Assembly (NCBI GenBank): GCA_028709705.1
Contig: JAQVWL010000005.1
Coordinates: 892 to 64,891 of the forward strand
Direction of reading: 5' to 3'
DNA: 64,000 nt
Source: Clostridia bacterium
GTDB lineage: Bacteria; Bacillota; Clostridia; Christensenellales; UBA1242
The position numbers and the translations under genes are program-made. Position 1 is the stretch's first letter, and the number at the start of each line of letters is the position of its first letter. The notes below the pieces were generated by a model, which saw only the letters and a list, made by a program, of their open reading frames with translations, did no database searches and was not told the DNA's origin. This document shows, piece by piece, positions 2,741 to 62,459 of this stretch.

Positions 2741-3436
2741 ATGAAAGTTTTTGCAATAAGCGATTTACATTTGTCTTTTGGTAGCAACAAACCAATGGAT
2801 ATTTTTGGCGGAAATTGGGAAAATTATTTGCAAAAAATTGTGAGTGATTGGAACGCAAAAGTTGGCGAAGAAGACATTGTTTTAATAGCGGGCGACATAA
2901 GTTGGGCAATGAAACTGGACCAAACTACGGAAGATTTTGATTTTTTGAAGAAACTTAAAGGCAAAAAAATAATAATTCGTGGCAATCACGACTATTGGTG
3001 GGTAAGCATTTCAGGCGTTAGAAACATTTTGCCCGAAAATGTTTTTGCAATTCAAAACGATGCAATCAAGTTTGATGACATAATAATTTGCGGAACAAGG
3101 GGCTGGACCGTGCCAGAAACAACTTTTGAAACCGAGCAAGATGAAAAAATTTTTAAACGAGAAGTTATAAGACTAAACCTAACTTTGCAATCAGCAAAAG
3201 CCTTGCAAAAAAACAACGAAAAAATAATTTGTATGATGCACTATCCGCCAACAAATTCAAAAAAACAACCCAGTGAATTTACTGCACTTTTGGAACAATA
3301 TGGCGTTAATAAAGTTGTTTTTGGGCATTTGCACGGCAAAAAAGTAAAAAACAGTTTGCACTTTTCCATCAATCAAGTGGAATATTTTCTTACCTCCTGC
3401 GACCTTGTTGAAAACAAACTTGTTCGGGTGGAATAG
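2741..3436 (+). CDS. metallophosphoesterase (calcineurin-like)
   Basis: Motifs ISDLHL, GDISW, GNHDYWW and GHLHG. Confidence 0.8.
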   Translation: MKVFAISDLHLSFGSNKPMDIFGGNWENYLQKIVSDWNAKVGEEDIVLIAGDISWAMKLDQTTEDFDFLKKLKGKKIIIRGNHDYWWVSISGVRNILPENVFAIQNDAIKFDDIIICGTRGWTVPETTFETEQDEKIFKREVIRLNLTLQSAKALQKNNEKIICMMHYPPTNSKKQPSEFTALLEQYGVNKVVFGHLHGKKVKNSLHFSINQVEYFLTSCDLVENKLVRVE

Positions 3437-3493: not shown

Positions 3494-4763
3494 ATATATT
3501 CAATTCTTTTTCTAAATCAGAATAACTTACTTTTATTCGGTTGTTGGTTTTTCTATCTTCAAAATCATACGTTTTATTGTTGATAAATTCATTTCCAATA
3601 ATAATGATTTTTCTAATTCCAAACAATTCATTGTCTTTGATTTTTTCGCCAAGTGAATAGTGCCTATTGTCAAAACAAACTTTCACGCCTTTTGCTTTAA
3701 GATTGTTATAAAGATTTTCGCCTTCGGCAAGGCAAATTTCATCATTTTTGCAAATAATATTAACATCAAATGCGGAAACGCTATCTTCCCAAATAAGTTT
3801 GCCAAATTTTTTCATTTGATTAACCGCTAGCAGGGCAACAACTCTTGTTATGCCAATTCCATAGCAACCATTCCAATAATATTCCTGCTTGCCTTCTTTA
3901 TTTGTAAACGTTCCGTTCATCATTTTTGCATAGTTTTGGTCGTTTTGAAAAATATGCCCAAGTTCAGTTGCTTTTCTTTTTTCAAATTTTGATTTGTCTG
4001 TGTCTTTGTATTCCCCAAGAACATATTCTTTTAAAGTTTGGTCTTGCAAATCAAAAACTTCTTCGTTAACATAAAGATTGAGTTCATCGTTGCAATAAAT
4101 TGTGTCTTGCCCGTATTCCTCATCAAAAAACATAAATTCGCTTGCAGTTTTTCCGCCCATATCGTTGATAGATTTTATGTTTTTTATGTTATCAAAACCC
4201 AATTCTTTGAAAATTTTGTGATAAGCATCAACCATTTTGGCATAATTTTTTTCCATATTCTCTTTGTTTTCATCAAACGAATATGCGTCCATCATATTAA
4301 ATTCTTTGCTTTTAACGAGCCCGCCTTGGCACCTGATTTCATCTCTAAACTTTGTGCCAATTTGATAGTGAATAAACCCTAAATCTCTATAACTTTTTAT
4401 GTGGTCTTTTACCATTGCAACGCTTAATTCTTCCGCTGTGGGAGAAATAGCGTATTCGCTTTGGCGACCGATGGTTGTAAACATTGTTCCTGATTTAACA
4501 TACTTTTCCCATCTGCCCGATTGCACCCAATAGTTTTTTGGTTGCAAAATTGAATATTGCACTTCCGCACAACCAATTTCATCAAAATGTTTTCTTATTA
4601 TATCTTCAATATTTCGTCTGATTTTTAACAGCATTGTTCCAAAACCAAAACAACCTGCTGCATATTTTTTTAATTGCCCGCTTTGTTCCAAAAATTCACT
4701 TATATAGCAATCTTCTGTGCCAATTGTTTTTTTTGTTCTTAATCCTAAATTTGATAATTTCAT
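3492..4763 (-). CDS. proS: prolyl-tRNA synthetase, short form lacking the INS editing domain
   Basis: Class II motifs: FRDEIRCQGGLVKSKEFNMMDAYSF (motif 2), ISPTAEE and GCYGIGITRVV (motif 3). Start moved to the ATG at 4763, which is preceded by GGGGAG. About 150 aa between motifs 2 and 3 leaves no room for INS. Confidence 0.75.
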   Translation of the reverse strand: MKLSNLGLRTKKTIGTEDCYISEFLEQSGQLKKYAAGCFGFGTMLLKIRRNIEDIIRKHFDEIGCAEVQYSILQPKNYWVQSGRWEKYVKSGTMFTTIGRQSEYAISPTAEELSVAMVKDHIKSYRDLGFIHYQIGTKFRDEIRCQGGLVKSKEFNMMDAYSFDENKENMEKNYAKMVDAYHKIFKELGFDNIKNIKSINDMGGKTASEFMFFDEEYGQDTIYCNDELNLYVNEEVFDLQDQTLKEYVLGEYKDTDKSKFEKRKATELGHIFQNDQNYAKMMNGTFTNKEGKQEYYWNGCYGIGITRVVALLAVNQMKKFGKLIWEDSVSAFDVNIICKNDEICLAEGENLYNNLKAKGVKVCFDNRHYSLGEKIKDNELFGIRKIIIIGNEFINNKTYDFEDRKTNNRIKVSYSDLEKELNI

Positions 4764-10214: not shown

Positions 10215-10235
10215 CTTGGGTTCGAATTACGGCTG

Positions 10236-10258
10236 AAAAAAACGCCTTTCGGCGTTTT
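10236..10258 (-). terminator. intrinsic terminator after tRNA-Lys (also works on the plus strand)
   Basis: On the minus strand: AACGCC-GAAA-GGCGTT followed by T7. Confidence 0.75.
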
Positions 10259-10334
10259 GGTGGCTCACCCGGGATTCGAACCCGGGACCCCTTGATTAAA
10301 AGTCAAGTGCTCTAGCCAACTGAGCTAGTGAACC
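10258..10334 (-). tRNA. tRNA-Lys(TTT)
   Basis: GGTTCACTAGCTCAGTTGGCTAGAGCACTTGACTTTTAATCAAGGGGTCCCGGGTTCGAATCCCGGGTGAGCCACCA. Anticodon loop CTTTTAA. Confidence 0.9.
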
Positions 10335-57431: not shown

Positions 57432-57679
57432 TTTTTTCTCCATATGTTTTTATAGCACAAATAAAAAATTTTTGCATTAGTTTTTAAGAAAAAATAAAAA
57501 TTTTATATGTTATTTAACTATAATCATATCATTCTTATCTTCAATCGACATATTGTCAAAAGAAGTTTTTTCCAAAGCGGTAATATCCGTATAAGAAATA
57601 TGAATTAATTTATATTATTCTCCCTTTGCAGTTTTGCAAGATGCAATTAGAATTCTGCGAATAGCTCCACATTTGTTAT

Positions 57680-57958
57680 TTAGTTTGGTAAAATTTTTTC
57701 GGTTTTGTATTCGCTTTTATACAATAGTTCAAGCCAATATTGACTTTCGTGACTTTCTTTAAGCGCAATTTTAAGTTTTGCCACAAAATCATTTTTTCCT
57801 TGTGCATAGTCTGCTTCGTGAATGTTTGCACCAATAGAAGTTGCCGACCTTTGCAACTGGTTCGACATAACACTTTCCTTGTTTTTTAAAGTTTTGCACA
57901 ATTCTATTGTTTTAAGCGCAAACTCTTTTAATAAATTTAAAACCTTATTTTCTCTCAT
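57680..57958 (-). CDS. four-helix-bundle protein (23S rRNA IVS protein / Avd-like family)
   Basis: QLQRSATSIGANIHEADYAQGKNDFVAKLKIALKESHESQYWLELL is the family signature. Start moved to the ATG at 57958. Confidence 0.8.
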   Translation of the reverse strand: MRENKVLNLLKEFALKTIELCKTLKNKESVMSNQLQRSATSIGANIHEADYAQGKNDFVAKLKIALKESHESQYWLELLYKSEYKTEKILPN

Positions 57959-58080
57959 ATATATTTTATAACATATACGAAAACTAAAATCAATTTGAAA
58001 AAGCAATTTGAATTAATAATTTATTAATAAAAAATATAAATGGTCGCAGGGATTTTTTTAGTTGAAAAATTATTATATTA

Positions 58081-58248
58081 AATGCAATTGCTTCGCAATG
58101 CAATATTTTCTGGCGAAAATATGCAATATTGCCTTCGGCAATATGCAATGAAATAAATCCTTAATTTGCCTATTGGCAAATTGCATATGCGTTAGCATAT
58201 TGCATATCCGTAGGATATTGCATAAATCCGCTAGGATTTATTTCATTG
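58081..58248. repeat. intergenic hairpin array, copy B (7 short GC-cored hairpins separated by ATGCAAT/ATTGCAT)
   Basis: Hairpins at 58087-99, 58103-22, 58126-44, 58163-82, 58185-200, 58204-18 and 58222-41. ATGCAAT x4 in the left half, and its reverse complement ATTGCAT x3 in the right half. There is also a 15-bp long-range pairing between 58146-58160 and 58234-58248. Confidence 0.6.
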
Positions 58249-58286
58249 TTAACAAAAAAACTTCTTACGAAGTTTTTTTGTTAACT
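58248..58286. terminator. terminator after tmRNA (bidirectional hairpin)
   Basis: GTTAAC-A7-CTTC-TTAC-GAAG-T7-GTTAAC. Confidence 0.6.
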
Positions 58287-58658
58287 TGGTGGAGACGGGG
58301 AGATTGAACTCCCGTCCGAAAAAGTTGGTTTTTACTTTTCTACATATTTAGTTTATGATATTGTTTTACACTTGAAAAATTAGTTCATAAACAATCTTCT
58401 TAACAAGTGAGTTTTTTTGTTTTCTGTTTTTTTAAAAACTTAAATCAAAAACAGAGTTTCACGAGTTTTGATGCCTTAACTGTTTTCGTGATTTGCAATT
58501 AAGACAAGTTGCTAAGCTGCAACCAAGGCACTAGAAGTGTTAAACCCTCTAATTTCAGAATTATCTGCGTTTATTTTTTTCCTAGAATTTTAGGTAGTAC
58601 TAGGATTTACCATATGCTGTGCATAAAAACCAAACTTCCCCGTCGAAACTTACGCCCC
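58287..58658 (-). ncRNA. ssrA: tmRNA (ssrA)
   Basis: 5' GGGGGCGTAAGTTTCGACGGGG and 3' GGACGGGAGTTCAATCTCCCCGTCTCCACCA. G3:U70 in the acceptor. Tag reading frame at 58568..58512 is ADNSEIRGFNTSSALVAA*. Lies directly downstream of smpB. Confidence 0.9.
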
Positions 58659-58689
58659 CATATAAGAAAGATTATGAAAAACAACAAAA

Positions 58690-61982: not shown

Positions 61983-62459
61983 ATGTTTAATTACCCAAAT
62001 CAATATTGCTGTTGTAGGGGTCCAAGAGGTCCGCAAGGTCCACAGGGCCCAATCGGTCCTGCTGGTCCCGGTTTTGAAACCTACGGCAGTTTTTATAACT
62101 CTGCCGAACAATCTTTGACAACAGGAATACCCGTTGCATTGACAACAACAATTACTGCCAACAATTTAGCGTTGGCAGGCAATAGTATTGTCATTCCAAC
62201 AACAGGAACTTATTTAATTAATTACGGCGTAAACACTGTGCCAAACGCAGTTGCCGGAAACAATATTTTTATTGCAATCAACGGAATTGCTGTGGCGGGA
62301 ACACAACGAGCATTAAGTGTTAGCGCTGGCACTTCTTCAAGCACTATCTTGACTTTGACCGCTGGAAATATACTCACATTGATGCCAACTGCGGCAGGAG
62401 TTGCAGTTTCTACTATTGGAGCGCCAACCGCTTTTCTAAGTATAACACAAGTGGCATAA
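61983..62459 (+). CDS. collagen-like (GXY)6 protein with a BclA-type C-terminal beta domain
   Basis: GPRGPQGPQGPIGPAGPG followed by TGTYLINYGV...INGIAVAGT...LTLTAGNILTL...AFLSITQV. RBS AAGGAGG. Confidence 0.7.
   Translation: MFNYPNQYCCCRGPRGPQGPQGPIGPAGPGFETYGSFYNSAEQSLTTGIPVALTTTITANNLALAGNSIVIPTTGTYLINYGVNTVPNAVAGNNIFIAINGIAVAGTQRALSVSAGTSSSTILTLTAGNILTLMPTAAGVAVSTIGAPTAFLSITQVA

Follow-up and report, generated by a model that had tools for sequence, protein, structure and literature searches.

The question raised by the locus studied here is what an array of seven short hairpins, set between a tmRNA gene and the gene of an Avd-like protein of the PF05635 family, might be. The array is located at positions 58,081 to 58,286 of a 64,000-nucleotide stretch of contig JAQVWL010000005.1 from a Clostridia bacterium. 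This whole stretch is called the window below, and the loci compared with it carry L numbers from L121 upwards. A first-pass annotation had recognised no known class of non-coding RNA in the array. Comparison with Rfam and with metagenome loci points to a divergent member of the Gut-1 RNA family, and places it in a recurring unit made of a stable-RNA gene, a hairpin with the array, and a PF05635 gene on the same strand. A long-range helix of the element, termed P1, is maintained by compensatory base changes in related loci.

The array is a divergent member of the Gut-1 family

The seven perfect hairpins span 58086-58240 (58086-58098, 58103-58122, 58126-58144, 58163-58182, 58185-58200, 58204-58218 and 58223-58240) and read as the first-pass annotation had described them. 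The spacer heptamer ATGCAAT was likewise found where it had been placed, four times on the + strand (58082, 58098, 58121 and 58143) and three times on the - strand, where the + strand reads ATTGCAT (58180, 58199 and 58217). These seven copies fall within 142 nt, for about 0.08 expected per such stretch, and the 34 copies in the remaining ~64 kb (both strands) correspond to the chance rate. Folding of both strands, a check that the annotation had asked for, gave z-scores of -9.2 and -9.7, and none of the shuffled sequences was as good (0/200). The ordered array that had been claimed is thus real and not due to chance. In addition, the predicted perfect 15-bp pairing of 58146-58160 with 58234-58248 is present in the minimum-free-energy fold of both strands. 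The tmRNA and Avd-like genes on the two sides were confirmed by ARAGORN, Rfam and Pfam, and this context proved to be the central feature of the locus.

The Rfam search, which had also been asked for, gave a class after all. The Gut-1 model (RF01706, model positions 1-77) matched 58175-58248 on the - strand with 48.4 bits, for a gathering score of 50. The E-value was 3.9e-8 in a 1.4-kb scan and 1.8e-6 over the whole 64 kb, and the match is not listed at the gathering threshold. A second match, of 36.5 bits, covered the left half on the + strand (58096-58159); the element is single-copy in the window. Syntenic or related loci scored 51.7-79.8 bits, above the cut-off. Three or more tandem hairpins with a conserved heptamer linker, by which Gut-1 is recognised, were found in the window, where hp1, hp2 and hp3 (Table 1) are spaced by AUGCAAU. 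This linker differs from the Gut-1 consensus GUGAAAU at two of the seven positions, and ATGCAAT, ATGAAAT and GTGAAAT occur mixed in the intermediate loci L253 and L336. The window element thus has in common with Gut-1 the tandem hairpins, the heptamer of the form purine-UG-N-N-AU and a full-length model match; it differs in its score under 50 bits and in carrying AUGCAAU, not GUGAAAU or GUGAUAU. Judged by model score and linker, the array is a divergent, AT-rich and slightly sub-threshold member of Gut-1, a family that is known but uncharacterised.

The Gut-1 motif was described from human-gut metagenomes only (Weinberg et al. 2010, Genome Biol 11:R31, PMC2864571). It was judged there to be "certainly RNA, not cis-regulatory", and no gene association or anything further was given. 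In the 2010 seed loci, taken with their flanks from the Stockholm file of that paper, a strong hairpin is present directly upstream. It is followed by three or four GUGAAAU/GUGAUAU linkers with hairpins, by a central hairpin, and then by a segment pairing back to the 5' end. The 3' half contains three or four hairpins spaced by the reverse-complement linker (AUUUCAC or AUAUCAC). In the seed BAAZ01025322, the element is preceded by a tRNA 3' end with a bidirectional terminator. Mirroring of the two halves thus belongs to the family itself, although the 77-nt Rfam model, which spans under half of the ~170-200-nt element, leaves it out. When compared with these flanks, the window showed the same extended architecture, with the upstream hairpin, P1 and the reverse-complement 3' half. 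Neither this extended architecture, nor the P1 switch, nor the tRNA/tmRNA-array-PF05635 unit was found described in the searchable literature.

The array recurs between stable-RNA genes and PF05635 genes

A protein profile of the subfamily led to 80 metagenome PF05635 loci, from which the 30 most similar were taken, 29 of them with upstream sequence. A heptamer-repeat element was found directly upstream of the PF05635 gene in all of these (29/29): 25 mirrored hairpin arrays, two arrays with left-type units only (L263 and L273), one with right-type units only (L267) and one stem of contiguous heptamers (L282). Of the 20 loci scanned with the Gut-1 model, 12 gave a match above the gathering score, with 57-80 bits; each of these matches lies on the strand of the PF05635 gene and immediately in front of that gene. 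When the array detector was applied to ~240 unrelated loci, only four chance-like matches were returned.

Furthermore, a same-strand tRNA gene was present upstream in 19 of the 29 loci, usually as the last tRNA of a cluster, with its end 150-870 nt before the start codon. The tRNA identities were Arg, Cys, Tyr, Leu, Gln, Ser, Val, His, Thr, Lys and Asn. After the tRNA, a palindrome begins within 0-2 nt and the array follows immediately. A strong hairpin directly precedes the array in 27 related upstream regions, including L266, L277 and L279, which have no tRNA and no T-run. The order in L253 is 5S rRNA end, tRNA-Asn, bidirectional terminator, array (ATGCAAT/ATGAAAT, then ATTTCAT/ATTGCAT), extended -10 box and ATG; L336 and L338 show a tRNA 3' end, hairpin, array and gene. 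L252, L253, L336 and L338 are relatives from the lineage of the window. L252 begins within the right half of an array closely like that of the window, and the closest PF05635 homologues of the window protein are located at contig starts right behind arrays. Further spacer variants were GTGATGT, GTGAAGT, ATGAAGT and TCGATAT, each with its reverse complement in the other half. As read from gene order, these loci show a recurring three-part unit: a stable-RNA gene (tmRNA or tRNA), the hairpin and array, and a PF05635 gene on the same strand.

Other layouts were also observed. At least ten left-type units (GAGAAGT/GTGAAGT) occupy positions 456-700 of L303, and L284, like L263 and L273, has left-type units only, L267 being right-type only. 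Contiguous heptamer repeats with their reverse complements are present upstream of the PF05635 start in L282, L285, L287, L297, L311, L327 (TTCACT.../AGTGAAT...), L317 (GAGAGTT, eight times) and L321 (GAGAATG). These elements, which belong to more distant PF05635 genes and often follow a tRNA and a terminator, form one long inverted repeat without interspersed hairpins and represent a second element class. In L306 (~2900-3330), a PF05635 ORF is located within an apparent 23S rRNA helix 45, with tRNA-Ala and tRNA-Ile upstream and more tRNAs downstream, as in a classical intervening sequence. An unannotated PF05635 homologue also lies between hsdS and hsdR of a type I restriction-modification operon of Monoglobus pectinilyticus (L334, NZ_OY725736.1, 80876-81193).

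At the tmRNA locus itself, homologues of the window SmpB with 85-90% identity were found only on short contigs. One of them, L121, with 90% identity in SmpB, carries an array of this layout behind its tmRNA, after a different A/T-tract palindrome and with different hairpins. Its spacers are G/ATGATAT on the left and ATATCAT on the right; compared with the window, the spacer has changed in concert in both halves. L121 also carries a second tandem unit, the Gut-1 scores being 51.7 and 45.2 bits. Where SmpB identity falls to ~70%, the relatives lack a Gut-1 array after the tmRNA, although their native terminators likewise abut the tmRNA CCA end. From this presence and absence, and from the changed hairpins, it was concluded that the element is patchy and fast-evolving. 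One of the 70%-identical SmpB relatives, L246, has ~700 nt (3733-4457) without a called gene after the tmRNA, where its sister contigs have a gene within 100 nt.

The long-range helix P1 covaries and excludes the first hairpin

P1 joins the degenerate spacer L0 and the 5' arm of hp1 to a distal copy of the hp1 3' arm and R0. In an alignment of ten closed domains, 95.7% of the cells were paired and 5 of the 14 pairs were changed on both sides; slid controls reached at most 56%. Cognate P1 strands pair over a mean of 12 Watson-Crick bp, compared with 7.2 bp for non-cognate strands (24 units), and RNAalifold recovers P1 independently. The compensatory changes in related loci which the first-pass annotation had named as a check thus exist for P1, the best-supported new feature of the element. 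Since MAFFT alignment of whole units was structurally poor, the closed-domain alignment served for P1 only, and scripts were used for the rest.

A competition between the 15-bp pairing and the last hairpin had also been proposed, and it was borne out. P1 and hp1 use a common 5' arm in every related locus examined, and mutually exclusive folds are therefore conserved. For the window RNA, the calculated energies were -45.8 kcal/mol for P1 with the hairpins, -33.4 kcal/mol for the all-local hairpins and -63.1 kcal/mol for the minimum-free-energy fold. Two further ideas were rejected. Loop-loop kissing between the halves was ruled out in the window, as the loops are not complementary. Spacers acting as Shine-Dalgarno mimics or anti-Shine-Dalgarno sequences for the PF05635 ribosome-binding site were discarded on inspection by eye: covariation between the shared GTGA and the type of linker is absent, and the window lineage has no Shine-Dalgarno sequence.

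Strand of the array, and RNA versus DNA

It had been held that the strand could not be decided from palindromes. This stands for the spacers and the loops. On the gene strand, the loops of the left half are TTC (10) or TNNC (19), never GAA or GNNA, and those of the right half are GAA (11), GNNA (7) or GCA/GTA (8), with TTC once. As spacers and loop classes are both mirrored, neither can assign the strand. The mismatches, however, are informative: on the gene strand, G.A was counted 16 times for C.T 3 times, and G.T 14 times for A.C 8 times. A tandem G.A motif, GAGC-loop-GCGA, is present in the first right-half hairpin of L253, L255, L264, L276 and L277 and, by eye, of L269 and L278. This hairpin is kept across lineages with different spacers; the corresponding window hairpin (58128-58142) is without it. 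Thus, mismatch types favour the tmRNA/PF05635 strand as the putative functional single strand, a preference that applies to RNA and to single-stranded DNA alike.

Between these two, other features argue for RNA. The arrays of L284 and L263 abut the ribosome-binding site or the ATG, which leaves no room for a promoter, so that they should be transcribed. A promoter-like box is located upstream of the array in L267, and the related ORF of L306 lies within a 23S intervening sequence.

Proposed explanation

The explanation that we prefer, with a probability of about one half, is that the array is a Gut-1-family structured RNA, produced by read-through from the tmRNA gene, which would fold into a P1-closed multi-hairpin junction with a 3' tail and be functionally coupled to the Avd-like protein. 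Transcripts reading through the post-tmRNA hairpin would carry the array on the tmRNA strand. In such transcripts, hp1 would fold first and then be displaced by the longer P1 helix; P1 would close the multi-helix junction, in which the single-stranded AUGCAAU spacers would be displayed, and the hairpins of the 3' tail would be spaced by the complementary spacer. The RNA could then work with the PF05635 gene or protein in two ways. It might be a repeat scaffold bound by a pentameric protein, an option suggested by the PF05635 relative Xcc0516, a pentamer of four-helix bundles, and by the closest solved structure to the window protein (2rld, E 4.9e-25), which has five chains. Alternatively, it might serve as a cassette for processing or insulation, by which the PF05635 message is kept apart from the precursor of the stable RNA; this option is suggested by the cutting of the stems of S23p-bearing 23S intervening sequences by RNase III.

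A broader and more tentative proposal, which we regard as possible but rather doubtful, is that Gut-1 arrays and the other heptamer structures upstream of PF05635 genes, namely the one-sided arrays and the long stems of heptamers, would be the cognate nucleic-acid partners of stand-alone Avd-like pentamers. They would form an RNA-protein module living on the read-through of stable-RNA operons and evolutionarily continuous with 23S intervening sequences, and the number of heptamers, about five on the left and about five on the right, would correspond to that of the subunits in the five-membered ring. Gut-1, a motif of uncultivated gut bacteria, has been an orphan in Rfam since 2010, without function or gene association, and the recurring unit gives it a first testable partner. 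The PF05635 family, in turn, is very large, and no role is known to us for its stand-alone members. By tying the two together and to tRNA/tmRNA 3' ends, two puzzles become one testable system, with two questions: whether the pentamer binds the repeat RNA, and whether the array is a processing or insulating cassette for stable-RNA read-through. Furthermore, the Rfam model of Gut-1 can be extended, and PF05635 neighbourhoods can be used to find more arrays.

Several observations weigh against a read-through RNA coupled to the protein. The architecture is self-reverse-complementary in type, as a dyad-symmetric DNA site would be. GNA triloops are classic extra-stable loops of DNA mini-hairpins, and a role as single-stranded DNA therefore keeps some probability. 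The bias of G.T over A.C is weak and, within P1, amounts to 10 versus 8, which does not decide the strand. In the window and in most loci, the array stands between a terminator-like hairpin and the PF05635 promoter boxes, without a promoter of its own, so that its transcription would depend on a putative read-through. The halves are flipped relative to the gene in L315 (right type before left), and one-sided arrays exist. Some 2010 Gut-1 loci have no visible PF05635 start in their downstream flank, and the array is absent from the ~70%-SmpB relatives mentioned above. Finally, the PF05635 gene of the window is frameshifted in an A-run (57689-57703) and, as written, stops after 92 aa at 57680.

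Alternative explanations

Part of these observations would be accounted for by a DNA-level element, made of polar units (a heptamer and a short palindrome) arranged as four plus four inverted. Such an element would act at the level of DNA, double-stranded or extruded, as a protein-binding operator, an insulator or a supercoil-handling site between a very highly transcribed stable-RNA gene and the PF05635 promoter, with a logic like that of bacterial interspersed mosaic elements (BIME). The position between terminator-like hairpin and promoter, the strict dyad symmetry of spacers and loop types, the flip in L315 and the favoured GNA triloops agree with it. In addition, several loci have 5-10 nt between the end of the last spacer and the -35 box, and spacers are alike within a locus without pairwise compensation, as expected if a common box were recognised in trans. 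P1, however, is long-range and asymmetric, and its compensatory changes and G.U pairs would be of no use in double-stranded DNA. Mismatches between two purines show a strong strand bias, an array that abuts the ribosome-binding site, as in L284, must be transcribed, the related ORF of L306 lies inside rRNA transcripts, and the hairpin sequences all differ, unlike the units of REP (repetitive extragenic palindromes) and BIME. We consider a DNA-level element unlikely, while placing it first among the alternatives. Next comes a selfish cassette related to intervening sequences, also unlikely, in which array and PF05635 ORF would hitch-hike by horizontal transfer and settle after stable-RNA hairpins, and the array would serve only its own insertion, excision or processing, without a host function. 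The unit follows at least 11 different tRNAs, the tmRNA and a 5S-tRNA pair; it is patchy among close relatives, tandemly duplicated in L121, L254, L268 and L274, and its spacers and hairpins turn over rapidly. The frameshifted ORF of the window recalls the ORF of the Coxiella intervening sequence, which is in reductive evolution (PMC4990558). Moreover, L337 (from ~447) and L338 (from ~77) share 823 nt at 99.8% identity, beginning with the 3' arm of the upstream hairpin, and are unrelated before that point, although this breakpoint could be an assembly chimera. Such a cassette is, in contrast, not supported by the neighbourhood, which holds no recombinase, reverse transcriptase or transposase, nor by the tRNA/tmRNA 3' end, of which no duplicate was found within 2.5 kb, and the PF05635 subfamily is not enriched on plasmids or phages.

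Much less probable is the stack that the first-pass annotation had proposed, in which nested spacer-spacer pairing would pile the hairpins into consecutive four-way junctions, alternating with the P1 fold. It is true that the right spacer is the reverse complement of the left one in every lineage (ATGCAAT, GTGAAAT, GTGATAT, ATGATAT, GTGATGT and GTGAAGT), and that contiguous heptamers pair with their complements into one long stem in L282, L285, L287, L297, L317 and L321. In the 15 loci with heterogeneous spacers, however, the nested assignment was never superior to the alternative ones, and variant spacers were not compensated: the halves are complementary through one locus-wide heptamer, not pair by pair. 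For the window, the four-way-junction rod reached -42.3 kcal/mol, compared with -63.1 kcal/mol for the minimum-free-energy fold; its pairing probability is negligible, that of L3 with R1 being ~0. Furthermore, spacer pairings would have to be pseudoknots once P1 is formed, and one-sided arrays exist (L263, L273, L284, L303 and L267). Least probable of all, and very improbable in our view, are two convergent Gut-1 small RNA genes, the left half being transcribed from the tmRNA strand and the right half from the opposite strand, with a promoter back-to-back with the PF05635 promoter, and transcription ending at the bidirectional hairpin. Gut-1 matches on both halves and opposite strands (48.4/36.5 bits in the window, 66.8/50.8 bits in L258), the A-tract and T-tract of hp0, and the mirrored loop classes are in agreement with this arrangement. 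On the other side, the upstream hairpins of L266, L277 and L279 have no A-/T-tract and hence cannot terminate the opposite strand, the G.A mismatches of the right half stand on the gene strand and not on the opposite one, and a scan found no convincing opposite-strand promoter.

Concerning mobility, the window and 22 other loci were examined for a repeat of at least 10 nt of the tRNA/tmRNA 3' end within 2.5 kb. None was present in the window or in 19 of the others; L268, L280 and L297 each gave a short match (10-12 nt), which does not represent a far-boundary copy of the tRNA 3' end. An integrase-borne island at the tRNA or tmRNA was rejected, as there is neither a far-boundary direct repeat nor an integrase gene. 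The breakpoint between L337 and L338 falls in the hairpin loop, where L338 has a tRNA 3' end and L337 has none, as a rearrangement or an assembly chimera would leave. When genome contigs were scanned for three gapped ATGCAAT, no true relative was found in 119 stretches, among the matches listed, which were due to chance or to tandem repeats. A degenerate linker scan of viral contigs was saturated by noise: it gave no array among the matches listed and says nothing on phage carriage.

Comparison with known systems

The protein family invites comparison with two systems. S23p/PF05635 ORFs are carried by 23S rRNA intervening sequences (Ralph & McClelland 1993; Coxiella intervening sequence, PMC4990558), the RNA of which is excised by RNase III. 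With these the unit has in common the same protein family in or after a stable-RNA gene, beside base-paired RNA, and an ORF prone to decay. Intervening sequences, however, lie inside helix 25 or 45 of the 23S rRNA, and their RNase III-cut stem flanks the ORF, whereas the structured element of the window stands wholly upstream of the ORF, after the tmRNA, and the ORF has promoter-like boxes of its own. The window element was not retained as a 23S intervening sequence: it follows the tmRNA, no rRNA is present in the window, and only the ORF family and the association with a stable RNA are common to both. The family is also related to Avd of diversity-generating retroelements (PMC10053308), a homologous four-helix-bundle protein forming pentamers. 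The window neighbourhood has neither a reverse transcriptase nor a pair of template and variable repeats, and the array is without a counterpart in these retroelements. A diversity-generating retroelement was rejected, since the flanking ORFs encode AddB, MetRS, SmpB, RNase R and SecG and no reverse transcriptase. Avd itself acts with a structured non-coding RNA of the retroelement.

As for repeats, the REP and BIME of enterobacteria also consist of short palindromes that alternate in orientation, are joined by short conserved linkers and occupy intergenic positions after genes or terminators. REP units, however, are one sequence in hundreds of copies per genome, whereas in the window every hairpin differs, only the 7-nt linker is common, and the array is single-copy in 64 kb. 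The first-pass annotation was therefore right to set REP/BIME aside, since all seven stems differ and no second array occurs in the 64 kb. It was equally right about CRISPR: the conserved unit has 7 nt, the variable units are palindromes of 9-20 nt, half of the units are inverted, and the neighbours are housekeeping genes.

The scaffold version can be likened, as a working analogy, to protein-titrating or repeat-scaffold RNAs (CsrB/RsmZ, the TRAP-binding leader and ToxI), in which a short single-stranded motif is present in many copies between or on hairpins, the ToxI array being just upstream of its partner gene. Their motifs and proteins are unrelated to those of the array. ToxI consists of identical 36-nt repeats and a terminator follows its array, whereas in the window a terminator-like hairpin precedes the array. 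A type III toxin-antitoxin system of the ToxIN kind was rejected, as the units are not identical and the protein belongs to PF05635, not to the ToxN/AbiEii-type toxins.

The PF05635 gene, its surroundings and feature coordinates

The box TGTTATAAA in front of the PF05635 gene (Table 1) would be a promoter giving a leaderless mRNA, as we infer from its place. The same arrangement is present before the PF05635 ATG in L252, L253 and L336. In other lineages, a TTTACA-type -35 box, a TGnTATAAT-type extended -10 box and a GAGGTGAT ribosome-binding site were found. An NCBI entry, "four helix bundle protein [Clostridia bacterium]", matches the window protein with 100% identity, and the homologues have 114-118 aa. 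One A added to the A-run restores a 114-aa protein, which ends at 57615 with the normal C-terminus of the family; the frameshift could be a homopolymer error of the metagenome-assembled genome, a pseudogene or slippage. The window neighbours AddB, MetRS, SmpB, RNase R and SecG are housekeeping proteins, and no reverse transcriptase, integrase, recombinase, transposase or cas gene was found among the neighbours of the array.

The palindrome hp0 had been taken for a bidirectional terminator. A palindrome with an A-tract and a T-tract is indeed present there, but terminator is a reading of it and not a result, as a simple terminator scan did not list it, its T-run being located within the stem. 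hp0 and P1 share one base (58248).

Table 1. Features of the array and of its two flanking genes in the window
Feature	Position	Strand	Basis or remark
PF05635 (23S rRNA intervening-sequence protein / Avd-like four-helix bundle) gene	57615..57958	-	Pfam E 6.7e-21
Extended -10-like box TGTTATAAA	57965..57973	-	Sequence; 6 nt before PF05635 ATG
Open array: four AUUGCAU spacers with three hairpins between	58082..58149	-	Sequence; + strand reading is the second Gut-1 match (58096-58159, 36.5 bits)
Open-array spacer R4	58088-58082	-	
Open-array hairpin hpG	58097-58089	-	
Open-array spacer R3	58104-58098	-	
Open-array hairpin hpF	58120-58105	-	
Open-array spacer R2	58127-58121	-	
Open-array hairpin hpE	58142-58128	-	
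Open-array spacer R1	58149-58143	-	
Closed domain	58146..58248	-	Gut-1 match 58175-58248; P1 in minimum-free-energy fold; P1 covariation; RNAalifold
P1 3' strand	58160-58146	-	Includes R0 (AUUUCAU, 58154-58148)
Central hairpin	58182-58163	-	Closed domain
L3	58186-58180	-	Closed-domain spacer
hp3	58198-58187	-	Closed-domain hairpin
L2	58205-58199	-	Closed-domain spacer
hp2	58216-58206	-	Closed-domain hairpin
L1	58223-58217	-	Closed-domain spacer
hp1	58239-58224	-	Mutually exclusive with P1
P1 5' strand	58248-58234	-	Includes degenerate spacer L0 (AUGAAAU, 58246-58240)
hp0, perfect 17-bp palindrome, 38 nt, A7/T7 tracts	58248..58285	.	Sequence; forms in folds of both strands; read as bidirectional terminator-like hairpin
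tmRNA gene (ssrA)	58287..58659	-	ARAGORN; Rfam RF00023 116.6 bits; CCA end abuts hp0 palindrome

Three minor observations were made elsewhere in the window. The stretch between the array and the ATG, unusually long with 120 nt, contains AAAAAAATCCCTGCGACCAT at 58040-58059 (-). In other loci, hairpin 1 (AAATCCC-TTGC-GGGATTT) has a similar 5' arm and loop, and this sequence of the window may be what is left of a second unit. At 10232-10328 (-), a sub-threshold Rfam match to the Streptococcus small RNA SpF41 (41.9 bits for a cut-off of 52) overlaps a tRNA-Lys and is probably a false positive driven by the tRNA. An ORF with a collagen-like GPxGPxG run is present at 61983-62459 (+), with a weak match to the BclA C-terminal domain (35.7 bits for a cut-off of 38).

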